From NCBI GenBank assembly GCA_963768165.1, contig CAVYHJ010000002.1, forward strand, positions 195,283 to 259,282: a stretch of DNA of 64,000 bases, read 5' to 3'. The notes beneath the pieces are model-generated. The model saw only the letters and a list, made by a program, of their open reading frames with translations, searched no databases and was not told the origin of the DNA. Made by a program: the position numbers and the translations under genes. Shown here piece by piece: positions 6,863 through 32,811 of the stretch. The number at the start of each line of letters is the position of its first letter. Positions within the stretch are counted from its first letter, which is position 1. Source of the DNA: an uncultured bacterium (lineage in GTDB: Bacteria; UBP4; UBA4092).

Positions 6863-7258
6863 ATGTCTTGCTCATTTAAACTGGGTTTGGTATATTCTCA
6901 GGTTATGAAAGTGGCTTCAGGAAAAAAGAAAAGGATACTCAATTTAATAGTGTATGTATTTACTAATAAAATTACAACACGTATACTCAGTATAGGATTC
7001 TTTGCTTTATATGTTGGCTTTTCTATGACAAATCAGCGTACTGCTGCATTCCGTCTGATCGGAGTATATTTTATTTGCGGTGCGCTATATAATCTTCGTC
7101 ATCCGTGTGTCCCTTATGGAATTAGAGGACAACCACCAGCAGGATATTTAAGAGGGATTTATGCGGTTATCTTTGATATTGTGATTTTTATTATTGGTTT
7201 ATATTTTATTGTTTCACCAGAGTTGGCTAAGGAAATTTACGCTTATATGCATTCTTGA
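6863..7258 (+). CDS. Hypothetical small membrane protein
   Basis: 131-aa ORF with hydrophobic segments; no recognisable motif. Confidence 0.3.
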   Translation: MSCSFKLGLVYSQVMKVASGKKKRILNLIVYVFTNKITTRILSIGFFALYVGFSMTNQRTAAFRLIGVYFICGALYNLRHPCVPYGIRGQPPAGYLRGIYAVIFDIVIFIIGLYFIVSPELAKEIYAYMHS

Positions 7259-7512
7259 TATTTAGATAGAGCAATGCATCCTTCACCGCATCCTTGTCAT
7301 TCTGAGCGCAGCGAAGAATCCCTGTGTTCTACTCCCATATTATAGATTCAATGCGTCGGGAATTTTAGTGTTCTTTACGGTATTCCTGATGCATCTTTTA
7401 AAAAGGTTAAATTGTGATTGACATGATTAATTTCGTATGATAACCTTACGTTTCGTGTGGTAGGCGAAAATTTGATTTTTCCACATATTAACTCTAAAGG
7501 GAGGTAGTCGTT

Positions 7513-8662: not shown

Positions 8663-10996
8663 CTACGGCTTTTTATCCTTATGCTCGATCTTCTTGAAAT
8701 CATCAAGGGTTTCAGTCTTTTTGTTGAGGTCGTTTTTTAACCGCTGTAACGCCACTCTCATGACATCTCCATGAGAAATCCGCTTACCGTCCATGCGGGA
8801 CTGTACGTCAAGCCATAGGCTGTGTACCATATTAATATCTTCCTCACTCAATTGAGGAGCATGGGCACCCAAATTAAAGACATATTCAAACCCGTCCATA
8901 TCCACGACTTTAAACTGGACTTGTCGACGGGGTTTTTGCGGGAGCCGTTCCCAAGCTTGGCCAATGAGCTTTTCCTGTTCCCGGGCGTTCATTTTGGCAG
9001 ATAGACCGGTCACGATTTCAGCGGAATCCAGCCGCACCGCCGTTTGCGCCAGCGCATCGAATATATTATTGGAAGGAACCACCAGCAGGTCTACATGTTT
9101 CCCGTGTTTTTCAGCCATATTGACCACCGCGGTAAATAGGCGTTGTTCGTAATCCCGGAATAAGTTTTCCTGGTACAGGTCTCGTTCCCCGCTATCCGGT
9201 CCGGTAAGTAAGCGTATGGTGGTAACTACCACATCCTGTGCCACAGTATCGGTTTCATCCAACATATGTTCCAAGTGAGCGAGGAGATTGTAATTATGTA
9301 CCGCCACTAAAATATTGCCCGGTCGGGTTTGTACGGATTCCAGGCTGACTTCATGTTCTTGCGAAAGATTAAATTGTTCCAGGGAAGATACGGATTTATC
9401 CACTCTTTTGTGATTAATGTATTCCGAAACCGCAAATACGGTATAAAAAATACAGGTAAAGGCAATCCCTGAAATCGTGGCGATTTCTTTGGTAAATATA
9501 TTCACGACAGCGATGAAAAGTAAAACAGACGTAATCAGGATAAGTCCAAACGGGATTTCCAAAGTACCAATATATAAATTCCCCGGGACTTTCCATTCCC
9601 GCGGTGATTTGTCCTTATAGCGCAATACCACCATCGCCAGCCCTTTGAAGGCAAAAGACCATACCACACCAAAGGCGTAGGCTTCACCGAGCATATAGAC
9701 GTCTCCATGAGAACCCACGATGGTTAATAGTTGCATAAAGACAATCAAATTGATCATCCGGTAAGTGGTGCCGTATTTTTTCTGCGGTTTTCTAAACCAG
9801 GACGTCAGCACACCGTCTTCACTCAGCCGGTTGAGTACGCCGTTCGACCCGACAATGGCGGTATTCACCGCGCCGGAAAGCATTAAAAATCCCACAAAGA
9901 CTACAAAGGCTTGGAATAATAAGCGTAACGACAGTGGGCCAATCATATACATCGAAAGACCCGATATTAAATTGTCAAAGTATTGCGGTCGTACCGAGTC
10001 CGGGATAATCATAGAAGCAAAAATGCTGACCAGGGAAGTGAATATCAGGGAATAAACAAAGATGACAAAGCCGGCGCGCATAAGGTTTTTATGTTTGGGA
10101 TATTCCAGTTCCCTGTTCACCTGCGCCAGGGATTCTTCTCCGCTCATGGCTAAAACCGCATGGCCAAATGCGATCATGATTCCCAGTACCCCCATCCACA
10201 TGCCGAGTCCCCCGCGCATTCCAAACCGGGTTTCAGGGGGCGGTGCACTTGGATCCGCGGGGACAGCGTTGGGAGTATGAGTTAATGGATAAAATGCTTT
10301 AGGGAATATTTTCGGCATCCATCCGATAGCATCTTTGCTATATTCCATATGGCTGGCGGTCGGGGGAGGGGGCATTTGAGTTATCCCTTTTTGGATAAGA
10401 GTCAGGCTGCACCAGAATATCATAATGACCACCATCACGGTAGTAATTTTCATTATTTGTAAAGCATCCGAGGACGATTCATGCATCCCCTGGATATTCC
10501 GCCACCAGAAATACAGGGTTATAAATATGGCGATTCCAGCGGAAATCAAGTTAATGACCGATTTATCGGGCTGCCAGGGATGGCCAAAATAGGTCATAGT
10601 TTGCGCCACCAGTCCTACAATATACTGTCCTGCCGACACACCTGAAATGGGTCCCGTGAGTACATAGTCAAACATCAGGGCAGACACACTGATTTTAGCG
10701 AGCGTCCCGCCCATGGCTTCTTTGACCACGCGGTACACCCCACCCCGGGTAAACATGGCACAGCTTTCAACATAGACTGCCCGCACGGCGTAACTGAATA
10801 ACATGACCCCCAAAACCAGCCAGGGAGCCGCCCGGCCTGCCGCTTCTTCCGCAATCCCACCGACATAAAATGCCGATGAGCCCAGGTCGTTTAAGACAAT
10901 AGCCGCCGCGCGCCAAAAGGAGATAAAGGACAACATCACGGTCGTCGCGATAACTACCCGGACTCGATTTTGTTGAGGTGTAGTAGTAGGTTCCAT
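8663..10996 (-). CDS. APC-superfamily transporter with about 300-aa C-terminal cytoplasmic (USP-like) domain; possible K+ or amino-acid importer
   Basis: About 12 predicted TM segments in the N-terminal 480 aa plus a soluble C-terminal domain; immediately preceded by riboswitch-like leader A. Confidence 0.7.
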   Translation of the reverse strand: MEPTTTPQQNRVRVVIATTVMLSFISFWRAAAIVLNDLGSSAFYVGGIAEEAAGRAAPWLVLGVMLFSYAVRAVYVESCAMFTRGGVYRVVKEAMGGTLAKISVSALMFDYVLTGPISGVSAGQYIVGLVAQTMTYFGHPWQPDKSVINLISAGIAIFITLYFWWRNIQGMHESSSDALQIMKITTVMVVIMIFWCSLTLIQKGITQMPPPPTASHMEYSKDAIGWMPKIFPKAFYPLTHTPNAVPADPSAPPPETRFGMRGGLGMWMGVLGIMIAFGHAVLAMSGEESLAQVNRELEYPKHKNLMRAGFVIFVYSLIFTSLVSIFASMIIPDSVRPQYFDNLISGLSMYMIGPLSLRLLFQAFVVFVGFLMLSGAVNTAIVGSNGVLNRLSEDGVLTSWFRKPQKKYGTTYRMINLIVFMQLLTIVGSHGDVYMLGEAYAFGVVWSFAFKGLAMVVLRYKDKSPREWKVPGNLYIGTLEIPFGLILITSVLLFIAVVNIFTKEIATISGIAFTCIFYTVFAVSEYINHKRVDKSVSSLEQFNLSQEHEVSLESVQTRPGNILVAVHNYNLLAHLEHMLDETDTVAQDVVVTTIRLLTGPDSGERDLYQENLFRDYEQRLFTAVVNMAEKHGKHVDLLVVPSNNIFDALAQTAVRLDSAEIVTGLSAKMNAREQEKLIGQAWERLPQKPRRQVQFKVVDMDGFEYVFNLGAHAPQLSEEDINMVHSLWLDVQSRMDGKRISHGDVMRVALQRLKNDLNKKTETLDDFKKIEHKDKKP

Positions 10997-11016: not shown

Positions 11017-11237
11017 ATAAAAAACGCTCGAAAGGCACGTTCCCTTCGAGCGGTTATTGCCACCACTAAAAGCGCTATGTTAGAAACGTCCACTGTCTCT
11101 CCCACGCCTGCGGGGTTAGCTGTTGGGTTCGGGTTGAAAAGTAACCCTGCGCGTTTCCGCGATTCACCCCCTGACATCGGTTCCCCCGTCTCTTGCGAGC
11201 TCGGCGATCTTTCGTGGGATTCTTATTCCAAATTTAA
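11017..11237 (-). promoter_or_regulatory. Candidate c-di-AMP (ydaO/kimA-type) riboswitch leader, copy A, with intrinsic terminator
   Basis: Conserved core shared with three other copies (RNA sense ...GGGGGAACC...GGGGUGAAUC-CGCG-GAAA-CGCG-CAGGGUUACUUUUCAACCCGAACCC..CAGCUAACC..GCAGGCGUGGG); 3' hairpin CGCUCGAAGG/CUUUCGAGCG plus U-run at 11017-11055; extended -10 TGATATAAT at 11245-11253; start codon 10996 about 20 nt past the U-run. Confidence 0.6.
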
Positions 11238-14030: not shown

Positions 14031-14050
14031 GTCGAGTCGGGAGACTCGAC
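14031..14050. repeat. Short hairpin repeat (family R2) GTCGAGTC-GGGA-GACTCGAC
   Basis: Identical hairpin also at 21546-21565 and 22151-22170. Confidence 0.55.
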
Positions 14051-14894: not shown

Positions 14895-14976
14895 TATAAT
14901 TGGTACTCCTTTTTCCTCTAGAATGTATGGCGTCGGGAAAAAGAAGAGCGTTTATTCCCGACGCAGTTTTATTCTG

Positions 14977-16064: not shown

Positions 16065-17670
16065 ATGAAAACACGTAAACGCATTATTGTTATTTCACAT
16101 TTTCTGTTAGGACTCGCTACGATGATTCTGATTTTACCCGGGAGCGGGTTCGGGAACCAATTGGTGTATTCCACGTATCTGGGCGGGACGAGCGATCATG
16201 CGGAATCATTAGGGATTGCGATTGATACGGCTGGGAATATCTATATTACCGGATTTACCAAAGCACCGAATTTTCCCGTCACAGCATCCGGCTACGATAC
16301 AGTGTATGAAGGCGCGGGAGAGCATGTGTTTGTAAGCAAAATCAATCCGAGTTTATCGGGTGTCTCGTCTTTAGTCTATTCCACTTTTCTTGGCGGAGAG
16401 GGATATGAACTTGCCCGGGGCATTGCGGTGGATAGCGCGGGGAATATCTATGTAACCGGCTTTACCAACTCCTCTACCTTTCCAGTAACCGCGAATGCCT
16501 ACGATACAGGATTACATGGCGCGGAGTACGCGGCTTATCTCAGCGAAATCAATCCGAGTTTATCGGGTGCTTCTTCGTTGGTGTATTCCACGTATCTGGG
16601 TTCGGGTTACGCGGGAGGCTATGGCATTGCCCTTGGTAAATCCGGCAATGCCTATATTACCGGCTCTCAAAGCTATTACACGTTCCCGGTAACTGCCAAT
16701 GCCGTGGATACTGTGGGTACCGGCAATGATGTCGCTTTTATCTCTGAATTTAATACCAGTTTATCGGGTGTCTCCTCCCTGGTCTATTCGACTTTGCTGG
16801 GACCCAAGGACACTTTCGCCGCATATGCCAATGCCATCGCCGTAGATACTTCAGGGAAAATTTACGTAACCGGATTGACGGACTCGTCCACCTTACTTAC
16901 CACAACCAATGCGTTTAATACGACTTTTCATGGGTTACAGGACACGTTTGTGAGTGTGATAAATCCTAATGTGGCGGGATTGGCGGGGTTGGTGTATTCG
17001 ACCCTGCTGGGAGGAAGCCCCGCTAATTACGAGGATTCCGGCAATGGAATTACGGTAGACAAAGCGGGTATTGCCTATGTCACCGGTGTAACAGAAGACA
17101 CAATCTTCCCGGTGACCGCCATTGCCTATGACACCGTATTCAAAGGAAACGGAAATGTATTCCTGTGCAAAATCAATCCGTCCTTATCGGGGGTCTCGTC
17201 TCTGGTCTATTCGACATTATTAGGCGGCAGTGGGGGCGAGGGAGGGGAAGCCATTGCCATTGATACTGCCGAGAAAGTCTATGTGACAGGGTACACATTT
17301 CCCGGTCACGGCAGACGGGTATGATACGACATTCAACGGAACTCAGGATGTTTTTGTGACTGTATTGAATCCCAACTCATTGGGAACCTCCGCTTTGATT
17401 TATTCGACCTTTCTGGGAGGCAATAGCTATAGCGATGGACAGGGAATTGCTCAAGACAATAATAACAAAGTGTATGTCACAGGATATACCTATGCATCGA
17501 ATTTCCCCATCACCTCCAATGCTGTCAGCACTTCTTTACGAGGGACTGCAGGCAGTAACTATGATGCCTTTGCCACGGTGCTGAATATCACTCCTCCGGT
17601 AGCGGTCAATGATTGGATGCTGTATGCAGAGCCGGAAGTGGCGCAAGGGAGTGAGTCGGGAAAGAGGTAA
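16065..17670 (+). pseudogene. SBBP (beta-propeller) repeat protein disrupted by frameshift/deletion
   Basis: Repeating LVYSTYLGG...IYVTGFT...FPVTA.AYDT units; frame 0 stops at 17324 (VTGYTFPGHGRRV*) while the repeat continues in frame +1 from 17299 (FPVTADGYDTTFNG...). Confidence 0.55.
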
Positions 17671-17700
17671 AAAGCGGTTTGTTATCGAGGGAATAGTATC

Positions 17701-18039
17701 TTACTTTTTATCTGCTTCAATTAATGAATTTGTGTTTATCGACTCGAAAGCAAAAATGATTTTAAAAAGTATTATATAAAGAATAAGCATGAGAAAAATA
17801 ATCGGTAGCCTCTGATCAAAATAGGTTAGGTGATACGCACCGCATAAAGACATAGTGATAATATAAAGAGTAAACGATATTAATCCATTTATCAAACCGT
17901 ACATGAACCTTTTTTTTGCCATAAATCCTTTATGACATTTAGGGCATTTCAAGGTATAGTTGTACAAAGAGAAAAGCACATTCCCAAAAGTTATTACGTG
18001 TCCACATGCTGGACAGGGTCTGGAAAATTTCATGAACAA
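17701..18039 (-). CDS. Zinc-ribbon (CPxCG...CPKCHK) membrane protein
   Basis: N-terminal MKFSRPCPACGH..CPKCHK then two TM segments; paralog at 21703..22083. Confidence 0.45.
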   Translation of the reverse strand: MFMKFSRPCPACGHVITFGNVLFSLYNYTLKCPKCHKGFMAKKRFMYGLINGLISFTLYIITMSLCGAYHLTYFDQRLPIIFLMLILYIILFKIIFAFESINTNSLIEADKK

Positions 18040-18562
18040 TCAATCTTTCTCACTGAATTGTCTTTATTATAACATATAGGTAGGTTATTTTGATTTAAAC
18101 GAATAGTTCCGAATAGCCAGAGAACTTACACTGATAAAAGATTCCAGCAGGTTTTTTTAACTATATCGGAAATGAGTATATTTCTCTTTCCCGATAAAGA
18201 GAAATTGCCATACATTGCGGTTAATAACAGTCAGTTTTCCCTTAATTAAAAACGGTTTTTAAGAATCAGAATTTATTTTTCTGTGACAAATCATTTAACA
18301 AAATACTGAAACGAGTCATGGTTGACAAAGAAAAATACTTACTATATATTGTAGTCCTGGCTAGGATTAATTAGTAACTGTTGAAAATCCTGTTTCTATA
18401 GATGAACCAATTAAAACTTGTGTATGCTCATGCAATACTTTTTCTCCAAAAGAAAAAAGTAAACCATTTATTTCATTGGAGATAAGTATTTGCCATTTGG
18501 TAAATATTATTCTATTATCATTAGTATATACCTAGGATTTATATGGTTTGTCTATAGCTTAA

Positions 18563-20090
18563 ATGCCAACATTTCTAGCAAGGAATATTCCGGTAAGTAC
18601 AAAATATAAAAATCACTTAGAAAAGGACCATAATATATTTATTCCGTTGTTGTTCTTTGTGATTTATTGTTTCAGTTTTATATTTCACGATCCAATCACA
18701 CACATTTATTATGGGTATTGGCAATTATTACCTTTGGATGCTTTACTTCAACATCCCATTAGTAGTTTACTCCTGATTCACTCACAACCTCCCCTGCTTA
18801 ATCTACTGTTTTATATCGTACATATTCCATCCATGATATGGGAAATCAATCCTCAATTCACCGCAACGCTTTTATTTTTCTTTATCTCCCTATTCTCGAT
18901 ATATGTCTATTACAACCTGGTTTTTCTTATCACAAAAAATAAAGTATGTGGCATGGCCGTTCTTTCCCTCATTCTACTCAATCCCGGTTTCTCCTTTTTT
19001 CAGGGGTATTTCTTTTATCAGAATATGGACTTTTTAGTCAGTGGTATCCTGGTCTATCAAGCCTGTCTGTGGGCACTAAAACCGGATTTATACCGATTTG
19101 GAGGCGTGGTCATAGTGTATACTACAATGGTTTATTTACGGAGTTTATGGCATCCTCTTTTCGGATTTTTTATCGTTCTCTTTTTACCCCTAATGATTTA
19201 TCCAAAAATGAATAAAAAAATAATCCAAAAGCATTGGATCTATGGCAGTCTCCTTTTTATTTTATTAATCAGTCCTTGGATGTTAAAAAACCTTATTTTG
19301 TTTAACACCCCTTCTTTTTCTTCCTGGCTGGGTGGAAACCTTGGTGGTCAACGATTTTCGAAATTCATTCTTTCCAATAATCCAGCCGATGCTTTTGATA
19401 ACTCTTTGGTTAAACAATATTATTCCGACTGGCAATTAAAGATTTTAATGAATTATCCTGCTACTGCAGACATCGAAAAAAATTTAATTTCTGCCCCCCC
19501 CCTACATGAAGAGAAATTTAAATCACTACGCCCTTCCTGCAATCTGTAATGAGGATATGAAAGAGCGAATATCCTATTATAGAGAACACCCCTACCAATA
19601 TATACAGAGAATCTATTCAAATTTTGTCTACATGGATCTTCCCCCATATATTAATTCGTATACACAGGATTCAACAACAGGTTGGTATGGCGGTTTGCAA
19701 CGGATGGGAACTTATGGATATTGGTATGATGTCATATTTTATGGAAGTTGGTTTAGAAATTTTATAGTCATACATACCCTGGATTTTGTATACAGACCCA
19801 GCCTGTTTATCTTCATACTGATCCTGCTGTTATTACTCAGCATTCGGTTGGCAATCAATCAAAAGACAGAACCTATCCAGAGAATATTTTATTTCTTGTC
19901 ATCGTTAATGTTTCTCTGGTTTCTTGCCATGATTTTACTGATCGATGGAAAGGAAAGTAACCGAATGAGATGGGATATGGAAGGGATCTATCTATCAATC
20001 CTGGTTGAACGATGTTACGCCCTCTATCAATCTTTGAGGATACATAAACCGAATAATAAAAAACGGGTCCAAGTCAAACGCAGTAAATAA
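18563..20090 (+). pseudogene. Polytopic membrane protein split by frameshift at a 9-C homopolymer
   Basis: ORFs 18563..19549 and 19506..20090 overlap in different frames at the C9 tract 19494-19502; removing one C fuses them (...ISAPPYMKRNLNHY...). Confidence 0.5.
19494..19502. repeat. Poly-C homopolymer tract (9 nt)
   Basis: CCCCCCCCC at the junction of the two overlapping ORFs. Confidence 0.9.
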
Positions 20091-20205
20091 CAACATTTAT
20101 TTATTCAACTAACCTATACATGAATGTTAATCAAGTTAATGGTAGACATGAGGTTGTGATTCGCTGGTGAGATGTATCGGGAATGACACACACAAGAATA
20201 AAAGG

Positions 20206-20262
20206 TTACTTGGCTTTGGCGGAGTGGTTGTAGATAGCCAGGGAGATGACGCTGAGAAAGGG
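20206..20262 (-). pseudogene. 3'-terminal remnant of a kdpD-like gene
   Basis: Minus strand encodes DPFLSVISLAIYNHSAKAK*, matching the C-terminus of the KdpD-like gene at 23023 (FLSVISLAIYNYSAKTK*); no open upstream frame. Confidence 0.4.
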
Positions 20263-20307
20263 GTCGGAAAATACGCCAAGAGCGCTCCTTCTCGACGCAT
20301 AATTCAA

Positions 20308-20418
20308 GTAGTAACGAGAGATTCTTCACTTCGTAAAAAACACTACGCTCAGAATGGCAGATAGGGGGACGATGGGAAGAAGGCGTCGGGAAAGAGATAA
20401 AAGGCGGGTTGTTATCGA
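20308..20418. repeat. Composite repeat (R3+R4), copy 1
   Basis: GAGATTCTTCACTTCGTAAAAAACACTACGCTCAGAATGGCA ... GTCGGGAAAGAGATAAAAGGCGGGTTGTTATCGA; related copies at 21586-21695, 22951-23002, 17661-17695 and inverted at 7294-7333. Confidence 0.55.
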
Positions 20419-20426
20419 GTCACAGT

Positions 20427-20906
20427 TCAGGATTTCTTGATTAATTTGAAATCCAGTACAGAAAGGAAATAGATGAATGAAGCATAGACTAGAATTACAA
20501 CACACGTCAAAATATATTCCCTTTGCTCCGGTAAATTTTTTATCACTCGCACATCTTTATTCGCCGAAATCAGACTGAATAATTTCGCTATTTGCAAAAA
20601 TAATAATACCGATAGCATAGAAAGCGTCAGAGTTTTAGCCCCAGGTCTTTTGCGTAAGATTCCAATACAACCAATAATTAAACACAGGGTTAAACCAAAT
20701 TCTAGAACGACTCCAATAATTGTTACTCGCAAAAACTGCGCATTACTTACGCCCGCAAACCCAAAAATTAAATAGACCAACGCAAAGCCCATTATTAACA
20801 GAAAACATACTCCCAAAGTGAGTAGAAGTATAACCCAAGGACGATAATGCTTGTTAACAAAAGATTTCATCTTTTTCTTCCCACGACGTAATCTTATATC
20901 TAACAA
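20427..20906 (-). CDS. Hypothetical polytopic membrane protein
   Basis: 159 aa with four hydrophobic segments. Confidence 0.4.
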   Translation of the reverse strand: MLDIRLRRGKKKMKSFVNKHYRPWVILLLTLGVCFLLIMGFALVYLIFGFAGVSNAQFLRVTIIGVVLEFGLTLCLIIGCIGILRKRPGAKTLTLSMLSVLLFLQIAKLFSLISANKDVRVIKNLPEQREYILTCVVILVYASFIYFLSVLDFKLIKKS

Positions 20907-21039
20907 GTTTCGTTGTCAATCACCTCCAAATTATAGAGGCGAAGTTTACCCTGCGCCTACGGTTTAGTTGAGAAAAAACGCGAGAAGGCGTCGGGAAAGG
21001 CTTGAAAAGTGAGACGTTCCCGACTCAGGAGAAATACGT

Positions 21040-21261
21040 TTACAGAAGTTTAAGGAATTCTTCCACGGTTAAACCGGAATTGCGGATGAGCGCTCGCAGA
21101 GTCCCTACTGAAAGTTCCTTGTGCTGGGGAATCGAGAGATTGACCCGGATTCCGGGTTTGACGAGAACCAGATGACTACCGACCTGACCCATGACCTGCC
21201 ACCCGGCTTTTTGAAAAGCCTTGGCGGCTTCCCTCCCAGAAATATTGGCCAGTCTCCCCAT
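21040..21261 (-). CDS. hicA: Type II toxin-antitoxin system HicA-family toxin
   Basis: 73 aa; SGREAAKAFQKAGWQ...GSH...GTLRALIRNSGL matches the HicA pattern. Confidence 0.7.
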   Translation of the reverse strand: MGRLANISGREAAKAFQKAGWQVMGQVGSHLVLVKPGIRVNLSIPQHKELSVGTLRALIRNSGLTVEEFLKLL

Positions 21262-21265
21262 TGGA

Positions 21266-21481
21266 TCAAACAGCGACTACAACCGGAGAGTGACCTTTGG
21301 CGGGTTTGCGTTTTCGCAGGGCTTTTTGGTCTTCCGCCCATAGCCAAGCGGTGATGGCTTCTTTTACATTTTCCAAGGCTTCTTTTTCGTCTTTACCTTG
21401 GGAAACGCAACCGGGGAGTGCGGGAACCTCCGCGACAATCCACCCGTCTTCCGCTTTCTCTAATAAAACGTGAAACATCAT
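21266..21481 (-). CDS. hicB: Type II toxin-antitoxin system HicB-family antitoxin (UPF0150-like)
   Basis: 71 aa; MMFHVLLEKAEDGWIVAEVPALPGCVSQGKDEKEALENVKEAI matches the small HicB pattern; 4-nt gap to hicA. Confidence 0.7.
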   Translation of the reverse strand: MMFHVLLEKAEDGWIVAEVPALPGCVSQGKDEKEALENVKEAITAWLWAEDQKALRKRKPAKGHSPVVVAV

Positions 21482-21585
21482 AATCGTTTGTCCTTTATTT
21501 TTTCCTCAATGACTCTAATATACCATAGAAATAGTTTCAAAGGCAGTCGAGTCGGGAGACTCGATCTAAAAAAGATTTACTTCAG

Positions 21586-21695
21586 GTAGAACACAGGGAT
21601 TCTTCGCTCCGTAAAAAGCACTACGCTCAGAATGACAAATTTGGAGGCGGTGGGGATTGAGTCGGGGAAGAGATAAGAAACGGGTTGTTGCTGAT
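21586..21695. repeat. Composite repeat (R3+R4), copy 2
   Basis: GGTAGAACACAGGGATTCTTCGCTCCGTAAAAAGCACTACGCTCAGAATGACA...GTCGGGGAAGAGATAAGAAACGGGTTGTTG. Confidence 0.55.
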
Positions 21696-21702
21696 TAGGA
21701 TT

Positions 21703-22083
21703 TTATTCTTTTGGGTTATCCTTGAACAGGTTATATAACAAGGGGTAAGCTGGTTTCCATTTTGTTTCTATTAATGTAACGTTGTCAAAGATGAATAAAG
21801 TTAAGATGAATCTGTAAACTATCTCAAAAACAAGTATAATTGGAATTAATAAAATAATGACCTCAAGCGGGTTTAGAATATTCACAAATTGCAATGTAAA
21901 TAAAACAATTAATATAATGACTAGACTTATTGCTTCTACTATTATAATCCCTTTACGCCAAGCTTGCGCCCAGTAGACTTTATGACATTTTGGGCATTGC
22001 AAATGATATCTATATAGTGTGGGAAGCATTTCCCAATTAGAAACACTATGTCCACATGCCGGACAGGGTCTGGAAAATTTCAT
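21703..22083 (-). CDS. Zinc-ribbon membrane protein (paralog of 17701..18039)
   Basis: MKFSRPCPACGH...CPKCHK followed by two TM segments. Confidence 0.45.
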   Translation of the reverse strand: MKFSRPCPACGHSVSNWEMLPTLYRYHLQCPKCHKVYWAQAWRKGIIIVEAISLVIILIVLFTLQFVNILNPLEVIILLIPIILVFEIVYRFILTLFIFDNVTLIETKWKPAYPLLYNLFKDNPKE

Positions 22084-22326
22084 ATCAAATTCCTTTTCAT
22101 TTCCAAACGCAGATTATAGCATTAGTGGAGGGCGGCGGGAATAGTAAAGTGTCGAGTCGGGAGACTCGACCTATCGGATAGAGGAATGGTCAAAACCAAT
22201 TTCTTACGAATATCATAAGTCGTATTGATTTAAACAAAAAGTAAGCGTAATATAATGGGGTTCAGACCATGGAAATTATCATTCACCCACGATATGATAC
22301 CGGGGATTTATTCAGGAGGGCAGGTC

Positions 22327-22956
22327 ATGAAACGCTTGATTTGTTTGTTAACAATCACTCTTAGTATAGGTTTTGTAACGCAATTATGTTGGGGTTACTC
22401 CTCATCGGAATTGATAATTCCGCCATCCGCCAGAGTACCCGGGTCTGTATCCAGCCAAGATACTTCCGCAAATACGCCCCCAATACGAAACTATGTTAGC
22501 GAACTTCCATCTTCTTTTAAAAAGGATGCCAATGAAATTTATAATTTTTCCGTTAAAAGTCTGGAAGGTAAATATACCCACATGGGGGACTATAAAGGGA
22601 AAGTCATCGTGGTCAATTTCTGGGAATCCACCTGTTATCCAAGTTATCTGGAATTGTTCAAAATCGAAAGCTTGGCTAATTTTGACAAGAGAAAAGAAGT
22701 GGTCATTATATGTGTCGCCGAGGATGACGAGAAACTCCTACTTCATTATAAGGACAAAATCCCCCAGCTTTCATTCCCCATCTTTACTTATAACCAGTTT
22801 GATATACCGGATGCGCTGGAACATGAATATGTCCCCACCACGTTTATCATCAACCAGAACGGTAAAATTATACTGGCAGAATCCGGTATCATTGAAGGTT
22901 TCCAACTATGGGAAGAAATCCAAAAACTCCTTCCCCACAAACCAAACACCAAGTAA
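22327..22956 (+). CDS. Thioredoxin-fold (TlpA/redoxin-like) protein with single-Cys site
   Basis: Start set at MKRLICLL (AGGAGGG RBS); VVNFWESTCYPS aligns with the WxxWCxxC redoxin site but the second Cys is Ser. Confidence 0.5.
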   Translation: MKRLICLLTITLSIGFVTQLCWGYSSSELIIPPSARVPGSVSSQDTSANTPPIRNYVSELPSSFKKDANEIYNFSVKSLEGKYTHMGDYKGKVIVVNFWESTCYPSYLELFKIESLANFDKRKEVVIICVAEDDEKLLLHYKDKIPQLSFPIFTYNQFDIPDALEHEYVPTTFIINQNGKIILAESGIIEGFQLWEEIQKLLPHKPNTK

Positions 22957-23022
22957 CGAGAGATTCTTCGCTCCGTAAAGAGCACTACGCTCAGAATGAC
23001 AATTTTGGGGGTGGTGGGGATG

Positions 23023-25002
23023 CTATTTGGTTTTGGCGGAGTAGTTGTAGATAGCCAGCGAGATGACGCTGAGGAAGGATTCGAGGAGATAGTCCTGTTC
23101 TTGCGAGAGGAACTGAGAATCCTGCGGACGACCGATAGCGAGGACGCCGACAATATCGTTTTTGACGTTCAAGGGGATAAAGCGCCACGCGGAAGAGGAG
23201 AGAGTCTGGGTCTCCCGACCGGCAAGTTCCTTGTGCTCAAATACCCATAAAGCGATAGTCATTTCGTGACTATTAAATTTCACAGAGTCACCGGTTTGGG
23301 AGCGGATAGTGAGTTTACCGGTTTTGTCGGGAAGCAGGAGCGCCGAGTCACAGGCGAACATTTCGGAAATGTCCGAACTGATTCTATCGAGCAAATCAAT
23401 AAACCCGATAGCGTGATACAAATCCTGGCTGAATTCATTGAGCAACGAAATGTACCGCACCTGGGTGCGGGAAGATTCCGATTGCCGTTTGAGACGGTCG
23501 GCAAGGAGACTTGTCACAATGCCGACTAAAAACATGACAAAGAACGTGGGCAGATAACTCATATCGCTGACTGTAAAAGTGAAAATCGGCGGAACAAAAA
23601 AGAAATCGAAACAAAGCACGCTCAACAGGGATGCGACCAGACCGCCGATGAGTCCGCGATAAATCCCTGACAGAATCACGGGAATGATGAATAAAAGGGC
23701 AACATTCGTGAGACCGATGTAAGAATGAAGAGGAAAGCAAATGAGAGTGGTTGCGCCCACGATGGCAAGGCTCATAAGATAGGAACGCCAATCAAGAACG
23801 AGATTGCTTCGTCGCTGCGCTCCTCGCAATGACAAAGGTTGTGGTGACGATTCGCCACCGACTACCAAGACTTGAATAGGATTGCTTTTATCAATAATCT
23901 GGTTCAAGAGTGACCCGCGTATCATTCTACGAAACCGGGATTGGCCGGAGAAACCAACAATAATCAACGAGGCATTTTTTGAACGGGCAAACCGCACGAC
24001 TTCATCGGCAGGCTGGTTGCTGGAAAGACGGACAATTTTCCCGCCCAATTCTTTGGCGAGATTAAAATTCTTCTCCAACTGTTTAGCCCTTTGCGGGTCG
24101 AGCGTAGTTTGCACCTGTGGTTCGACATAGACCGCAAACCAATCGGCTTTTAAATCTTCCGCCAACCGATGTGCCACGCGGACGGGTTGTTCGGACAAGG
24201 GACTCGGACTGATACATACCATAATCCGGGTGCCGACGGGCCAGGGACCTTTAATGCCCTGCAATTGCATGTAAGAGAGCATGGCATCGTCCACGTGCTT
24301 GGCGGTATAGCGCAGGGCTAATTCGCGGAGCGCGAGCAAAGTGCCTTCTTTAAAATAATTCTGGGAGGCGAGTTTCGCCATATTGGCCATGTAGACTTTA
24401 CCTTCGGTTAAGCGCTGGAGAAGTTCTTCCACGGGAAGGTCTACGAGAGCAATTTTATCCGCCAGTTCCAGAATGCGGTCGGGGACGGTTTCCTTCACTT
24501 CAATTTTGGTAATTTGATAAATAATGTCATTGACACTTTCAATATGCTGGATGTTCAAGGTGGTGTAGACACTGATACCGTTATTGAGGAGTTCTTCAAT
24601 ATCTTGAAACCGTTTTACATGGCGTGACCCGGGGACATTGGTATGCGCCAATTCATCCACCAGAACATATTTGGGTTTGCGCTTAAGAATATAGTCCAGG
24701 TTAAACTCATCCAAGACCATACCCTGATATTCTATTTTCAGGAGGGGAGAACGTTCCAATCCAAAAATCAACTGTTCGGTTTCGGCACGACCATGGGTTT
24801 CGACAATGCCGATAATGATATCTTCGCCCTTTTGTTTGATCGCCTGGGCTTCCTGCAACATGCGGTAGGTCTTGCCGACACCGGCCACGTACCCTAAGAA
24901 TATTTTAAGAAATCCCCGGGTGCGATGCTGCTGTTCCTGTTCTTTATTAAACAGGTTCAGCAGTTGATCCGGATCGGGGCGATTTTGATTCTGTTCAACC
25001 AT
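23023..25002 (-). CDS. kdpD: KdpD sensor protein lacking histidine-kinase domains
   Basis: N-terminal P-loop GVGKTY, USP-like region, 4-TM block and GAF-like C-terminus; ends at 659 aa with no H-box or HATPase motifs; directly downstream of kdpC. Confidence 0.75.
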   Translation of the reverse strand: MVEQNQNRPDPDQLLNLFNKEQEQQHRTRGFLKIFLGYVAGVGKTYRMLQEAQAIKQKGEDIIIGIVETHGRAETEQLIFGLERSPLLKIEYQGMVLDEFNLDYILKRKPKYVLVDELAHTNVPGSRHVKRFQDIEELLNNGISVYTTLNIQHIESVNDIIYQITKIEVKETVPDRILELADKIALVDLPVEELLQRLTEGKVYMANMAKLASQNYFKEGTLLALRELALRYTAKHVDDAMLSYMQLQGIKGPWPVGTRIMVCISPSPLSEQPVRVAHRLAEDLKADWFAVYVEPQVQTTLDPQRAKQLEKNFNLAKELGGKIVRLSSNQPADEVVRFARSKNASLIIVGFSGQSRFRRMIRGSLLNQIIDKSNPIQVLVVGGESSPQPLSLRGAQRRSNLVLDWRSYLMSLAIVGATTLICFPLHSYIGLTNVALLFIIPVILSGIYRGLIGGLVASLLSVLCFDFFFVPPIFTFTVSDMSYLPTFFVMFLVGIVTSLLADRLKRQSESSRTQVRYISLLNEFSQDLYHAIGFIDLLDRISSDISEMFACDSALLLPDKTGKLTIRSQTGDSVKFNSHEMTIALWVFEHKELAGRETQTLSSSAWRFIPLNVKNDIVGVLAIGRPQDSQFLSQEQDYLLESFLSVISLAIYNYSAKTK

Positions 25003-25012
25003 TGATTTTCAC

Positions 25013-25579
25013 TTATTTTTTAAGGACATCCAGTGCCATATTCAATTTTAATACATTGACAACCGGATCGCCGAACAACCCCAAGAGAGGTTTTTCGGTA
25101 TATTTTTGAACCAAATCAGTTACGACATCATCCTGCAAACTGCGAGATTTTGCAACTCTTGGCACTTGAAGCAAGGCGGCATCCAGACTTATATGGGGAT
25201 CGAGACCGCTGGCCGAGGATGTGACCAAGTCCACGGGAACAGGCGCATCGGGTGGCAAATTATTTTCCGCACGAACCGCGCGTGCCGTGGAATCAATCTG
25301 GCTAATCAATTTCTGGTTGGTGGGACCGAAATTGGTCGCATTGGAATTGGTGGCATCGAAATTAGCCGCCGAGGGACGCCCGTGGAAATATTCGGGTTTG
25401 GTGAAGGATTGTTCTATTAATTCGGAACCAACAACCTTGTTGTTCACTGTCGCCAGACTGCCATTGGCCTTGTGTGGGAAAAGTATCTGTGCGATTCCGG
25501 TCATTGCCAACGGGTATATCAACCCGGTGAGAATGGTGAATACGATTAAACTCAAGATGGAAATTTTTAACTGTTTCAT
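25013..25579 (-). CDS. kdpC: K+-transporting ATPase subunit KdpC (operon 1)
   Basis: 188 aa, N-terminal TM, conserved GRPSAANFD and SGLDPHIS segments. Confidence 0.85.
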   Translation of the reverse strand: MKQLKISILSLIVFTILTGLIYPLAMTGIAQILFPHKANGSLATVNNKVVGSELIEQSFTKPEYFHGRPSAANFDATNSNATNFGPTNQKLISQIDSTARAVRAENNLPPDAPVPVDLVTSSASGLDPHISLDAALLQVPRVAKSRSLQDDVVTDLVQKYTEKPLLGLFGDPVVNVLKLNMALDVLKK

Positions 25580-25596
25580 TTGTATAATCTCCTTTT

Positions 25597-25686
25597 TTAA
25601 TAACTTCTACCCGACTTTAGTCGAGGGTTCGGGGACTTCAGTCCCAATTTAAGGGCTAAAGCCCTAAGAACCGTGGACTAAAGTCC
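25597..25686. repeat. Interspersed double-hairpin palindromic repeat (family R1), copy 3
   Basis: CTTCTACCCGACTTTAGTCGAGGG..GGACTTCAGTCC..GGGCTAAAGCCC..GGACTAAAGTCCCGTAGAAGAA between kdpC and kdpB. Confidence 0.6.
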
Positions 25687-25702
25687 CGTAGAAGAAAATA
25701 TG

Positions 25703-27739
25703 TTATGCCCAACCTAATACAACGATGAGCATGTCAATTAGTTTGATACCGATGAAGGGAAGAAGCACTCCGCCCAACCCATATACCAGTAAATTCATTT
25801 TCAAGAACGAGGAAACGGAAACGGCACGTAATTTGACGCCCCTCAATGCCAACGGGATTAAGAACAAAATAATAATCGCGTTGAAAATGACGGCGGACAA
25901 AATCGCACTCCCAGGATTATTTAACCTCATCACATTCAGAATATTCAACTGCGGATAAGCGACCGCAAACATTGCCGGAACGATGGCGAAATATTTCGAG
26001 ACATCGTTGGCAATACTAAAAGTAGTAAGCGCGCCACGCGTGATAAGGATTTGTTTTCCGACTTCCACAATATCGAGAAGTTTCGTGGGATTGGAATCCA
26101 AATCAATCATATTGGATGCTTCCCGCGCCACCTGCGTGCCTGCATTCATAGCGACCGCGACATCGGCTTGCGCGAGAGCGGGTGCGTCATTAGTCCCGTC
26201 TCCAATCATCGCGACAAGGTTACCGTCCTCTTGTGCCTTGCGAATTAATGCCAATTTGGTTTCGGGTTTGGCCTGAGCAACGAAATCATCCAGCCCGGCT
26301 TCCGCGGCAATCGAAGCAGCGGTGAGCGGGTTATCGCCGGTAATCATGGTGGATTTGATACCCATTTCACGGAGTTGCGCGAGACGAGCTTTAATGCCTT
26401 GTTTCAGAACGTCTTTGAGACGAATCACGCCAAGAACTCTTTTCCCGTCAGAAACGACCAAAGGCGTATTACCTTGTTTGGCGAACCCTTCCACGATGTC
26501 CTTGACTCCGGCAGGGATTGTGGCATTGGACTGTTTCAGAAATTCTTCAATCGCGTCCAAGGAACCCTTGCGGATTTTTTTGCCATCAATATCAATCCCG
26601 CTCATGCGTGTTTCGGGAGTGAAAGGTACGAACACGGCACCTTCGGGAGCACGGATATCGCTTCCCTTGATACCTTTTTCGGTTTTACAGAGGGTTACAA
26701 TACTTCTGCCTTCGGGAGTTTCATCGGATAGTGAGGATAACAAGGCACAGTCCACCAATTCTGCTTTTTCAACTCCAGCAGAAGGAACCAAATCGGTTGC
26801 CATACGATTGCCGAGAGTGATGGTACCCGTCTTATCGAGCAAGACGATATTGACATCGCCTGCCGCTTCTACCGCACGACCGCTCAGAGCGATGACGTTG
26901 TGTTGTAATAGTCTATCCATCCCTGCGATACCGATAGCGGGAAGTAAACCGCCAATGGTGGTCGGCATGAGGCATACCAAGAGAGAAATCAATATCGGGA
27001 CGGTGGTCGCGATACCCAAATAATTGGCATAGGTGGGCAGGACGATAACGACGATTAGGAACAACACTGTGATGCCGACAAGGAGAATTTCTAAAGCGAT
27101 TTCATTGGGTGTCTTTTGACGTTTCGCGCCTTCGACCATAGAAATCATGCTATCGAGGAATGTCTCACCGGCATTCGCCGTGATACGGATTTTGATATGT
27201 CCCGATAATAGTTTGGTTCCACCAGTCACGCCACTGCGGTCACCACCGGATTCCCGAATCACGGGAGCGGATTCACCAGTGATGGCAGATTCGTCCACAA
27301 GAGCGACGCCTTCGATAATTTCTCCATCACCGGGAATGACTTCCCCTTCAATAACCAGAATCAAATCGCCTTTGCGAAGATCCAAGGCGGATACTTTTTC
27401 TTTCGCTCCACTTTCCAATATTTTAAGAGCAAAGAGTTCGCTGCGTGCTTTCCGCAAAGATTCCGCACGTGCTTTCCCTTGAATTTCCGCCAAGGCTTCC
27501 GAGAAGGTGGCGAAAAGAACGGTCACCCAGAGCCAAAGGGTAATTTGCAAATTAAACCCGAAACTGGCATGATGGGTGATATTGATTACCGTGATGATAG
27601 TGGTAATCACAGCGCCGATTTCAACGACCAACATTACGAGATTGCGCCATAATAAAAAGGGATTTAATTTTTTAATAGCTTCCTGCAATCCCTTGAACAG
27701 AAAGTCCGCTTGAAATATACTTCGTTTCGTTTGTGCCAT
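25703..27739 (-). CDS. kdpB: K+-transporting P-type ATPase subunit KdpB (operon 1)
   Basis: P-type motifs [21 protein letters not shown]; 678 aa. Confidence 0.95.
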
Positions 27740-27806
27740 ATATTATCTCCTTAGAACCACCACCCCCTTCCCCCTCCTTAATTAAGGAGGGGGACTGAGG
27801 GAGTGA

Positions 27807-29507
27807 TTAAAATGTTTTTCCTTGCAACATGAATAAATGTTCCAACACGGGACCGAGGGTGAATGCCGGGAAATAGGTCAATGCGCCGACAATAAAGACT
27901 ACGCAAACCAGCATAGCGACAAATAACCAGCCGGTGGTTGGAAATGTAGCCAAACTGGTAGGAACAATCTTTTTCCTGACCAGTGCTCCGGCAATAGCCA
28001 GTCCTGGAATGAGGGTGGAAAATCGTCCAACCAACATGGTGGCGCCACCGGTTAAATTATAAAACACGGTATTGGCGTTAAGTCCGGCAAACGCGGAACC
28101 GTTATTCCCACCATAGGATAAAAAGGCATATAACACTTCCGACCAACCGTGGGCGGAGGGATTATTCATGCTGGACAATCCGGTGGCGGTAATCATAGCG
28201 AATGCCGCAAAGATTTTAAGAACAATGGGCGCTGCCAAAATTGCAATCACCGTCCAAATCATTTCATAAGGACCAAGTTTCTTGCCAAGATATTCAGGGG
28301 TACGTCCGATCATCAATCCAGCAATAAACATAGTGGCGAAGACATAGAAAAACATTCCGATGAGTCCGACACCCAATCCGCCGAAGATGACTTCCCCAGT
28401 GCATAAGTTAAACATATAGACTAGACCCGTGAGGGGGAGCATACTGTCGTGCATAGAGTTCACGGAGCCGTTGGAAGTGACGGTGGTCATGTGTCCCCAT
28501 GCAGCAGAATTGATAATCCCAAAACGGGCTTCTTTGCCTTCCATATTCCCCCCAACCAGATGCAACTTATCGAAAAAGGGGTTACCCTGGGTTTCGCTAT
28601 AGAATACTACGGCCAAACCTATAATAAATAGGGTTAACATGGAATAAAAGATGGCTTTGCCTTGACGGCTATCGCGTACCATAAAACCAAACATGAACAC
28701 TTGCGCGGTGGAAATGAAGAGAATTGCCATCATTTCAAAAATATTAGACAAGCCAGTGGCATTCTCAAAGGGATGCGCGGAGTTGACGTTGAAGAAACCG
28801 CCGCCATTAGTTCCCAACTGTTTAATGGCAATCTGTGAAGCTGCAGGACCAACGGCAATGGTTTGCGCACCGCCTTCCAATGTCTTTACTACCTCATACG
28901 GATGTAAGGTTTGAACGACACCTTGAGACACCAAAATGAGGGTAAGGATAATGCTCAATGGCAATAATATATATATTACAGAACGGGTCATATCCACCCA
29001 GTAATTGCCTATCTTGTCGGTATCTTTGCGAATAAATCCGCGAATCATGGCGACCATGACTGCCATCCCCATCGCGGGGGTAACGAAATTATGTACCGTG
29101 AGTCCCAGCATTTGGGTGAGATAACTCAGGGTACTTTCCCCGCCATACGCCTGCCAGTTGGTATTGGTGACAAAAGAGATGGCGGTATTTAATGCCAAAT
29201 CCCAACGGACGGCAGCGAATTTTTGCGGATTCAAAGGCAGATGCCCTTGAAGAAGCTGCAATAAAAATAAAGCGGCGAGAAATATTACATTGAACCAGAA
29301 TACCGCCCAGGCATAAGTTTTCCAGTTCATTTCTTCGGATTCATTGACGCCGCAGAGACGGTATATTCCACGCTCAAGAGGTTTTAAGAACCCGCTGAGA
29401 AATGTCCATTCTCCGTTATACACCCGGAACATATATTTCCCTGTCGGGATGGACAGGAAAAACATGATTGCCAAGGCAACAACAACTACAATCATATCTA
29501 TTAACAT
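27807..29507 (-). CDS. kdpA: K+-transporting ATPase subunit KdpA (operon 1)
   Basis: 566-aa polytopic protein with KdpA-typical GTNGGGFF selectivity-filter-like motifs. Confidence 0.9.
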   Translation of the reverse strand: MLIDMIVVVVALAIMFFLSIPTGKYMFRVYNGEWTFLSGFLKPLERGIYRLCGVNESEEMNWKTYAWAVFWFNVIFLAALFLLQLLQGHLPLNPQKFAAVRWDLALNTAISFVTNTNWQAYGGESTLSYLTQMLGLTVHNFVTPAMGMAVMVAMIRGFIRKDTDKIGNYWVDMTRSVIYILLPLSIILTLILVSQGVVQTLHPYEVVKTLEGGAQTIAVGPAASQIAIKQLGTNGGGFFNVNSAHPFENATGLSNIFEMMAILFISTAQVFMFGFMVRDSRQGKAIFYSMLTLFIIGLAVVFYSETQGNPFFDKLHLVGGNMEGKEARFGIINSAAWGHMTTVTSNGSVNSMHDSMLPLTGLVYMFNLCTGEVIFGGLGVGLIGMFFYVFATMFIAGLMIGRTPEYLGKKLGPYEMIWTVIAILAAPIVLKIFAAFAMITATGLSSMNNPSAHGWSEVLYAFLSYGGNNGSAFAGLNANTVFYNLTGGATMLVGRFSTLIPGLAIAGALVRKKIVPTSLATFPTTGWLFVAMLVCVVFIVGALTYFPAFTLGPVLEHLFMLQGKTF

Positions 29508-29737: not shown

Positions 29738-29896
29738 TAAATAAAAAACCCACTCACTCTTCCACGCCTACGAGGTTAGCTGACGGGCTCGGGTTGAAAA
29801 GTAACCCTACGCTTTCGCGATTAGCCCCAACTTCCGGTTCCCCCGTATCTTTCGAATTCGGCGAACTTAAGTGGTAATACTGCTATATTTTTCTAC
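29738..29896 (-). promoter_or_regulatory. Candidate c-di-AMP (ydaO/kimA-type) riboswitch leader, copy B
   Basis: Same conserved core as copies A, C, D; internal GNRA-capped hairpin CGC-GAAA-GCG; 3' tail GAGUGAGUGGGUUUUUUAU. Confidence 0.6.
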
Positions 29897-30140: not shown

Positions 30141-30716
30141 TTATTTGGCAGAAGATTGAACTTGATCCAATGCGATATTTAACTTCAAGACATTGACGCC
30201 CGGATCACCAAGGAAGCCCAAAGTTCGAGAATCGGTATTTTTCTGGATCAGATCTTGTACCGTTGCCTCATCCATTTTTCGAGCTTTAGCAACCCTTGGA
30301 ACTTGAAATAAGGCAGCCTCCAGGCTTATATGGGGATCCAAACCACTGGCGGACCCTGTGACCAAGTCTACTGGCACTAGTGCATCTGCGGGCAGGTTAT
30401 TTTCCTGTCGAATAACATTCGCAGTAGAATCAATTTGACTAATAAGTTTTTGGTTGGTGGGTCCCAAGTTAGACCCGGTGGAATTCCCACCATCAAAATT
30501 CGCCGGAGATGGCCGCCCATGAAAATACTCCGGTTTGGTAAAAGATTGTTCGATTAATTCAGAACCAACCGTTTTCCCATTCACCTGTATTAGACTGCCA
30601 TTGGCTTTATATGGGAATAAAACCTGACAGATGCCTGTCATCATCAAGGGATAAAATAACCCTGTTAAGATTGAAAAAACTACAAAGGTTGTGATCGATC
30701 TTGTTAAATCTTTCAT
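30141..30716 (-). CDS. kdpC: K+-transporting ATPase subunit KdpC (operon 2)
   Basis: 191 aa, paralog of 25013..25579. Confidence 0.85.
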   Translation of the reverse strand: MKDLTRSITTFVVFSILTGLFYPLMMTGICQVLFPYKANGSLIQVNGKTVGSELIEQSFTKPEYFHGRPSPANFDGGNSTGSNLGPTNQKLISQIDSTANVIRQENNLPADALVPVDLVTGSASGLDPHISLEAALFQVPRVAKARKMDEATVQDLIQKNTDSRTLGFLGDPGVNVLKLNIALDQVQSSAK

Positions 30717-30729
30717 TTTTAGGACCTCC

Positions 30730-32793: not shown

Positions 32794-32811
32794 GACATCG
32801 TCATGACTCTA

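Follow-up and report, generated by a model that had tools for sequence, protein, structure and literature searches.

What are the short repeats that lie between the small genes beside the kdp island of an uncultured bacterium of the UBP4 lineage, and how did a fragment of kdpD come to lie among them? The stretch of DNA analysed here (hereafter the window) comprises 64,000 nucleotides (nt) of contig CAVYHJ010000002.1 in assembly GCA_963768165.1. An initial annotation had described a composite repeat, made up of an element R3, a G-rich spacer and an element R4, together with a 3' remnant of kdpD, and had taken these as traces of past duplication and recombination with the kdp island. We think it probable, with a confidence somewhat above even, that R3 belongs to a family of DNA-level, non-autonomous elements resembling repetitive extragenic palindromic (REP) sequences and bacterial interspersed mosaic elements (BIMEs), and that R3 itself is a lineage-private, long-loop derivative of this very widespread hairpin. 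That the copies form one family is held more firmly than this statement as a whole. The repeats are present at the sites first described, with small refinements of coordinates from BLAST, shuffles and a covariance model, and the members of the R3 family between the genes of the window are as follows.

7296-7320, plus strand: canonical short hairpin GTCATTCTGAGCGCAGCGAAGAATC, an inverted copy (covariance model R1, 48.2 bits, E=1e-11)
20318-20359, minus strand: R3 copy 1, a degenerate long-loop hairpin with a GCCA tag and GTGAAG (BLAST, 91% to copy 3; R1, 16.8 bits, E=0.017)
21596-21638, minus strand: R3 copy 2, a long-loop hairpin TGTCATTCTGAGCG-TAGTGCTTTTTACGG-AGCGAAGAATCCC (exact core match; R1, 25 bits)
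22960-23001, minus strand: R3 copy 3 (one mismatch to the core; BLAST; R1, 27.6 bits)

The long form of R3 reads GAGATTCTTCGCTCCGTAAAAAGCACTACGCTCAGAATGACA on the plus strand, and its 40-nt core is matched without mismatch at 21598-21637, with one mismatch at 22962-23001 and not once in 100 shuffles of the window. Copy 1 was overlooked when up to three mismatches were allowed because it carries four; it was recovered by BLAST, with 91-92% identity to the other copies across 20320-20356, and by the covariance model. The short inverted copy, 37 nt past the stop of the open reading frame (ORF) 6863-7258, has exact matches of 23 nt and 15 nt to R3 copy 2 (BLAST), and the flanks common to the two extend to 7294-7333. 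The left flank GTAGAACACAGG (reverse complement) is common to copy 2 and the short copy, and copies 1 and 3 have AAGTAACGAGAG in its place. In ordinary and covariance-model alignments the long copies correspond to the short copy with about 14 nt inserted in the middle of the hairpin. All three carry the same 14-nt insertion in the apical loop and must stem from a single progenitor within this genome. With a further copy inside an ORF, described below, the window holds four intergenic copies and one in-ORF copy, all of them solo and none in doublets. The long-loop form had no match in GTDB representatives or JGI metagenomes.

The search of other genomes for the R3 core, which the initial annotation had proposed, was more productive for the short form. 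The pattern GTCATTCTGAGCG-N(1-20)-GCGAAGAATC was found in 116 IMG/VR stretches, mostly with a 2-nt gap that makes it a 25-mer, and the exact 28-mer TGTCATTCTGAGCGTAGCGAAGAATCTC in at least 120 stretches of one-genome-per-species bacterial assemblies. Among the matches listed, the genomes carrying the 28-mer are labelled with at least 15 phylum-level groups, including Chloroflexota, Bacteroidota, Planctomycetota, Verrucomicrobiota, Clostridia, Nitrospirota, several candidate phyla radiation (CPR) groups, Cyanobacteria, Alpha-, Gamma-, Delta- and Zetaproteobacteria, Actinomycetota, Armatimonadota, Omnitrophota, Poribacteria and Cloacimonadota; the isolates Pedobacter nototheniae, Calothrix PCC 7103 and Microcoleus are also listed, and some genomes have several stretches each. 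Plasmids of Planktothrix, Calothrix, Oscillatoria, Hymenobacter and Granulicella also carry the 28-mer, at sites that bear no annotation. None of 5,426 complete E. coli genomes has it, and deposited phage genomes almost entirely lack the hairpin. Contamination or a vector common to the carriers is an unlikely source of the cross-phylum matches, since isolate genomes and plasmids have them and the core recurs in Sanger-era Cycas mitochondrial DNA. The Rfam search that had also been suggested identified no family: Rfam 15 had no match on R3, R4 or the in-ORF hairpin in a gathering-threshold scan of the window and three permissive scans (E<=10), and the gathering-threshold scan returned only four c-di-AMP riboswitches. 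Full-text searches of the literature by DNA string gave as their sole relevant match the consensus of the Bpu element of plant mitochondria, and the hairpin is apparently undescribed.

The family consensus is T-GTCA-YY-CTGAGCG-N-AGCGAAG-RR-TC-TC, with a canonical unit of 25-29 nt. An unpaired (T)GTCA is followed by a 5-bp stem (A-Y-Y-C-T), tandem G.A/A.G pairs, a G-C/C-G step and a GNA triloop, and the 3' side ends in an unpaired TC(TC). The stem varies as a nucleic-acid helix would. When the two middle positions of the pattern GTCANNCTGAGCG...GCGAAGNNTC were left free, 81 of the 87 instances other than TT/AA were Watson-Crick complementary, where chance would give 1/16; these comprise TC/GA (61), CC/GG (7), TG/CA (6), TA/TA (5) and CT/AG (2). 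In an alignment of 100 sequences, 99.9% of the cells are paired under the named structure and slid controls collapse; double-sided changes number 60 against 13.9 in shuffles, with none of 500 shuffles as high. Planktothrix copies replace the apical C-G with a compensatory T-A, and at one intergenic site in three related phage contigs the stems read ATTC/GAAT or ACCC/GGGT, a fourth contig having no hairpin there. Stem length is fixed in 145 of 179 distinct instances, and the apex is GCG-N-AGC with N free (A 41, C 41, T 16, G 14). Conservation extends into the flanks (T at -1, 85%; T at +1, 77%; C at +2, 63%), and about three quarters of the core matches found without reference to the tags carry the GTCA...TC tags. 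The minimum-free-energy fold of the short form reproduces a hairpin of 5+2 bp. Two other candidates for this motif were rejected: a hammerhead or K-turn, which the CUGA...GAA with tandem G.A resembles, lacks its CUGANGA core and 3-nt bulge, and the stem variants GGATC, GGGTC and GCATC do not keep the GANTC of a HinfI/CcrM site.

Whatever base N is, the d(GCGNAGC) mini-hairpin is unusually stable as DNA, more so than as RNA (PMC13037366). The element would on our reading act as DNA, in the form of a single-stranded hairpin or a cruciform, and would be a non-autonomous or host-dependent repeat of the kind represented by REPs, BIMEs and the paired REP forms called REPINs. Its copies are mostly intergenic and are dispersed among unrelated housekeeping genes. 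All-against-all BLAST of 3,635 nearby ORFs gave only phage structural clusters, Pfam searches of 97 flanking ORFs gave no recurrent family and no transposase, and the ORFs between inverted motif pairs were housekeeping genes, again with no transposase. Copies cluster, with 261 covariance-model hits in 100 loci of about 7 kb, and adjacent copies are arranged tail-to-tail in 42 cases, head-to-head in 5 and on the same strand in 19 (p=4e-11). The doublets have 28-nt inverted arms ending TGTCA...TGACA, spacers of mostly 15-25 nt and, in 20 of 31, arms with different stems. Set against a MITE, which has terminal inverted repeats and a target-site duplication, the 31 doublets show the inverted arms and no visible flanking direct repeats. 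Plasmid3 of Planktothrix agardhii NIES-204 (AP017994.1) carries three unannotated tandem tail-to-tail doublets with a 98-nt period (2503-2789 of the retrieved stretch), the left arms having the compensatory apical T-A and the right arms a long-interior variant.

With the family in place, the kdpD fragment can be considered. The features at the intact gene end and at the remnant are listed here.

22255-22956, plus strand: gene of the AhpC/TSA-redoxin family, convergent with kdpD (Pfam)
23023-25002, minus strand: kdpD, a KdpD sensor with Usp, DUF4118 and GAF domains and no kinase domain (Pfam)
20206-20266, minus strand: kdpD remnant, the last ~19 codons plus stop (matches 23023-23083 over 60 nt; local alignment)
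20265-20317, plus strand: decayed remnant of the redoxin 3' end, with no gap between it and the kdpD remnant (local alignment)
20155-20189, minus strand: possible strongly decayed hairpin GTGTCATTC-N18-GAATCACA, left of the kdpD remnant (R1, 12.5 bits, E=0.3)

The kdpD remnant at 20206 was correctly recognised in the initial annotation: by BLAST its core, 20210-20261, is 92% identical to 23027-23078 over 52 nt, and the match was extended to 60 nt. At the intact locus, R3 copy 3 and its spacer occupy the entire 66-nt gap between the redoxin stop (22954-22956) and the kdpD stop (23023-23025). At the remnant, local alignment places 20265-20376 on 22910-23018 (redoxin 3' end, R3 and spacer), so that 20206-20376 as a whole is a circular permutation of 22910-23083, with the kdpD 3' end first and then the redoxin 3' end, R3 and G-rich spacer. 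A tandem duplication of about 174 bp would leave a new joint in just this permuted order, and the locus records a past duplication of the redoxin/kdpD junction. A tandem duplication of this length across the convergent gene ends, with rearrangement afterwards, would give the remnant locus, and the hairpin copies would supply patches of homology for local rearrangement. The hairpin at 20155-20189 would fit the first, decayed copy of the duplication and may possibly be that copy; its match is weak (E=0.3), and the pairwise alignment does not rise above the shuffled background.

The claim of duplication and recombination with the kdp island thus stands in part and gains the junction duplication; the part that would make R3 a product of local recombination does not stand, R3 being a member of a pan-bacterial family. 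Segmental duplication and decay around the kdp island, with no element identity, is how the locus was initially read, and the permuted junction copy, the one insertion common to the three long-loop copies and the paralogous zinc-ribbon genes that adjoin two R4 copies all agree with it. It leaves unexplained the canonical copy 13 kb away, the in-ORF copy, the letter-for-letter hairpin across phyla and the occurrence of R4 behind an unrelated gene. As a complete explanation it is already contradicted by the cross-phylum matches and the stem covariation, and we regard it as quite improbable.

The nearest KdpD found is 66% identical, and relatives share the kdp operon and differ in its downstream context. 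The window itself has two paralogous kdpABC operons, at 25013-29507 and 30141-34560, with 71-76% DNA identity (repeat families D10-D14), of which only the first is followed by kdpD. Four c-di-AMP (ydaO-type) riboswitches lie on the minus strand (11090-11216, 29750-29873, 35440-35565 and 38110-38234; 92-101 bits), two of them upstream of the two kdp operons and the other two upstream of ORFs 8663-10996 and 37364-38023. A C-rich palindromic element, CCCCCTCCTTAATTAAGGAGGGGG, occurs at 668-703 and 27755-27808, one copy being between kdpA and kdpB of the first operon.

The intact kdpD contains a hairpin of its own.

23802-23833, minus strand: second-subfamily hairpin GTCATTGCGAGGAGCGCAGCGACGAAGCAATC (exact match in the window, none in shuffles; the covariance model flagged 23799-23835)

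This hairpin has two tandem-G.A modules beneath the same GCGNAGC apex, and 62 IMG/VR stretches contain the 32-mer. Within kdpD the hairpin is read in frame as LSLRGAQRRSNL, which falls in the variable linker that joins Usp to DUF4118. In the protein alignment this linker has nearly the same length as in homologues, which suggests that the hairpin replaced linker sequence rather than being simply inserted. The kdp operon of the nearest named relative (GCA_041890195.1) has GTCATTCCCGCGAAAACGGGAATC-type hairpins in its kdpA-kdpB and kdpC-kdpD spacers. In the retrieved stretch these hairpins, of the type GTCATTCCCGC-AAAA-GCGGGAATC, lie at 7029-7057 (plus strand) and 9856-9896 (minus strand); they have the GTCA...TC tags of the R3 family and a different interior. 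GTCA-tagged hairpins therefore appear to form a superfamily.

It remains to place the rest of the composite, the spacer and R4, for which the following features are needed.

17635-17654: spacer-like stretch (alignments)
20360-20384: G-rich spacer, C-rich on the minus strand, between R3 and R4, copy 1 (alignments)
21639-21660 and 23002-23022: equivalent spacers (alignments)
17655-17689, minus strand: R4 copy 0, without R3, 11 nt past the stop of ORF 17701-18039 (minus strand)
20385-20419, minus strand: R4 copy 1, 7 nt past the stop of ORF 20427-20906 (minus strand)
21661-21695, minus strand: R4 copy 2, 7 nt past the stop of ORF 21703-22083 (minus strand)
20982-21028, minus strand: partial fourth R4 downstream of hicA, with a complete hairpin GTCGGGAA-N19-TTCCCGAC at 20988-21026 (nhmmer E=0.013; 17-nt exact match)
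14929-14965: sister hairpin GCGTCGGGAA-N15-TTCCCGACGC, downstream of an ankyrin gene (weak nhmmer match at 14927-14965, E=0.13)
21040-21261, minus strand: hicA (Pfam)
21266-21481, minus strand: hicB (Pfam)

R4 reads GTCGGGAAAGAGATAAAAGGCGGGTTGTTATCGAG, and its three copies are 84-91% identical. Its first 12-17 nt are common to the hairpins at 14929-14965 and 20988-21026, both just downstream of minus-strand genes. No match to R4 was found in GTDB representatives or JGI metagenomes, and R4 is a separate lineage-private module, probably a decayed copy of terminator-like hairpins of the GCGTCGGGAA...TTCCCGACGC type. R3 copies 2 and 3 with their spacers are 93% identical over 60 nt (BLAST), R3 and spacer making a unit of ~65 nt. 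R3 and spacer stand without R4 at 22960-23022, and spacer and R4 without R3 at 17635-17689. Because the modules are found apart, the composite is better described as a mosaic of independent intergenic modules, namely the R3 hairpin, the G-rich spacer and R4.

Its position immediately 3' of three genes was rightly noted at the outset, with R4 ending 7-13 nt past the stops of ORFs 17701-18039, 20427-20906 and 21703-22083. Two of these minus-strand neighbours are zinc-ribbon membrane paralogues, 46% identical over 61 aa. The third, of 159 aa, has no relation to them, so gene paralogy cannot account for the repeat. The repeats could also be conserved C-termini or small ORFs, that is, coding-sequence paralogy. 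They are intergenic except where the plus-strand ORF 17356-17670 reads into R4 copy 0; this ORF ends in R4 (...SGKR and stop), and the differences among the three R4 copies would be synonymous in its frame. There are only three such informative substitutions, however, and R4 copies 1 and 2 have no supporting plus-strand ORF. R3 copies lie between convergent or tandem genes and covary in the stem as a nucleic-acid helix. The initial annotation had held that its reading would fail if coding-sequence paralogy explained the repeats entirely; with their intergenic positions, the unrelated third gene and the stem covariation, we judge this explanation extremely unlikely.

An explanation at the RNA level deserves more weight, although we still consider it unlikely. 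R4, the C-rich tract and R3 would together form a 3'-untranslated module, acting as a protective 3'-end stem-loop, a Rho-loading tract (C-rich and G-poor) or a processing site. Stabilisation of upstream mRNA is established for classical REPs. R4-type modules lie 7-13 nt past stop codons in five of five cases, the GTCA strand is the sense strand of the upstream gene in all four intergenic R3-family copies of the window, and the 5' flank of the hairpin is pyrimidine-rich and depleted in G across the family (G 11-21% at -2 to -10). Family-wide, however, orientation to genes is random: with crude longest-ORF gene calls, copies that are co-oriented with both flanking ORFs and those that oppose both number 50 vs 43 in viral contigs and 27 vs 43 in bacterial loci, and divergent and convergent contexts in bacterial loci number 22 vs 21. 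Neither R3 nor full R4 has the GC-rich stem followed by a T-run of an intrinsic terminator, and no terminator-like site was predicted at any copy of either, the sole overlap being between the site at 20992-20977 and the partial R4 downstream of hicA. Single-sequence RNA folds of the whole composites on both strands were no better than shuffles (z -0.2 to +0.9), the R4 consensus fold has no pairs, and Rfam had no match. The reverse strand would have U.C mismatches in place of the G.A pairs.

The composites could instead be attC-like sites of a cassette array, with R3-spacer/R4 as the recombination site and 17655-23022 as three cassettes, each running from R4 to R3 and spacer. The arrangement agrees with this in having spacer/R4 only on the left (17655), R3-spacer/kdpD only on the right (23022) and full composites inside, and the content looks accessory, with hicAB, small membrane proteins, a frameshifted gene and a low-GC patch at 17.5-20.5 kb. 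The attC core sites RYYYAAC/GTTRRRY are absent from the R4-R3 composites, and no integrase or recombinase is among the ORFs annotated in 16-25 kb, the annotated part of the window; on these two grounds the integron form of the idea was rejected. The supposed cassette genes also run in both directions, the R3 family is elsewhere dispersed among housekeeping genes and not in cassette arrays, and no relative was found that would show the presence or absence of a cassette. We therefore rate a cassette array as very unlikely.

Several neighbouring features are recorded in their own right. A gene with SBBP beta-propeller repeats (16065-17670) is split by a stop into ORFs 16065-17324 and 17356-17670, the second ending inside R4. 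The low-GC patch (32-39% vs 43-50% in its flanks), between this gene and hicBA/kdp, has the look of an accessory islet. A run of nine C at 19494-19502 separates the overlapping ORFs 18563-19549 and 19506-20090, which look like one membrane protein with no Pfam match; a frameshift, phase variation at the run or a sequencing error may account for this. A perfect palindrome, TCGAGTC-GGGA-GACTCGA, occurs at 14031-14049, 21547-21564 and 22151-22169, two copies sharing 31 nt including flanks, and precedes the starts of three minus-strand genes, including hicB, by 65-95 nt. It may be an operator or another repeat family, and an independent Logan assembly of the region breaks exactly within it.

The importance of the REP-like family lies in its reach. 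A hairpin repeat is kept to the letter across most bacterial phyla, in phage contigs and on plasmids, with a core shared with a cycad mitochondrial repeat. Yet no Rfam model covers it, none of the records inspected annotates it, and the literature searched does not describe it. If this is a single family, either a universal host factor constrains the hairpin or it is transferred between very distant hosts. There are practical consequences as well, in that such hairpins give rise to false small ORFs, interrupt assemblies and may, as kdpD shows, lie within genuine genes. In this window the kdpD remnant is the trace of a small duplication, at a junction composed of modules of the mosaic. A broader reading, which we regard as speculative and rather unlikely, is that the hairpin is a universal, host-independent mini-element of bacteria of most phyla, their phages and plasmids and, as Bpu, plant mitochondria, propagated or kept without any element-encoded protein. 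On this account a conserved replication, priming or repair activity would recognise the ultra-stable DNA mini-hairpin, and the element would be able to insert itself in frame into genes, kdpD being the example, and to start permuted rearrangements of the kdpD/redoxin type. It would then be a new kind of selfish or structural DNA and not a variant of REP.

Compared with known systems, the family is closest to REPs, BIMEs and REPINs. It shares with them a short imperfect palindrome in which four conserved, unpaired nucleotides precede the stem on its 5' side, here within the 20-40 nt of a REP hairpin and supported by covariation; dispersal among ordinary genes in either orientation; and inverted doublets with a short spacer, two arm types, arrays and no target-site duplication. 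The doublets are a property of the family as a whole: the window copies are solo, unlike those of REPs and BIMEs. The apex also differs from REP in being a GNA-triloop mini-hairpin beside tandem G.A pairs, and the element is absent from complete E. coli genomes. Repeats of the REP type are otherwise regarded as confined to one species or genus and linked to a cognate transposase. No association with such a transposase (RAYT, of the Y1 type) was seen among the 97 flanking ORFs or between motif pairs.

A number of points weigh against the REP-like, DNA-level reading. The present element is identical across many phyla and classical REPs are species-specific. Its tag is (T)GTCA, whereas the two REP superfamilies are tagged GTAG or CGTC (PMC3733652). 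No trans-acting protein, mobility event or target-site signature was found; the flanks of 31 doublets had no direct repeats or target-site duplication, and the search for empty sites gave one phage group, 70-74% identical and too diverged to set boundaries. The nearest-neighbour DNA folding energy is weak (-1.9 kcal/mol, z ~0). The GCGNAGC apex is present in the short copy at 7296-7320 and in the in-ORF copy and is split by 14 nt in the three long-loop copies, so any role of the apex may be lost in the long form. The agreement in strand of the four intergenic window copies with the upstream gene points the other way, though with n=4 it is not significant; the gene calls behind the family-wide orientation counts were crude, as stated above, and the count of R3-family copies in this genome covers the window.

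A second likeness is to the Bpu elements of Cycas and Ginkgo mitochondrial DNA, which are 36 nt long and number ~500 copies (Chaw et al. 2008, as quoted in PMC8297867). The Cycas consensus is AAGGTTATCCCTTTCCTGAGCGTAGCGAAGGGAAGG (PMC8297867), which has the identical 15-nt core CTGAGCGTAGCGAAG between complementary arms and the same predicted fold, with a stem, a 2x2 G.A loop, 2 bp and a triloop. Bpu differs in its 8-bp stem, its AAGG terminal direct repeats and its Bpu10I site (CCTGAGC), and it is without GTCA/TCTC tags; the window copies have TCTGAGC and lack AAGG ends, and so are not Bpu units in this sense. The resemblance of the cores may reflect either homology or convergence. Judged by titles alone, none of the 30 listed papers that cite Bpu has a bacterial subject. 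The d(GCGNAGC) mini-hairpin of Hirao and colleagues (PMC13037366) coincides exactly with the canonical apex, GCG-N-AGC with N free; unlike a dispersed repeat family, it is a physico-chemical structure, noted in the priming origins of phages and plasmids and in N4 promoters.

The last comparison is with the small dispersed repeats of heterocystous cyanobacteria. The present element is also found in cyanobacteria, and it resembles the reported repeats in its size class and in its intergenic and occasionally intragenic positions. Those repeats, the subject of work by Elhai and colleagues in 2008, are reportedly 21-27 nt long and limited to one lineage.

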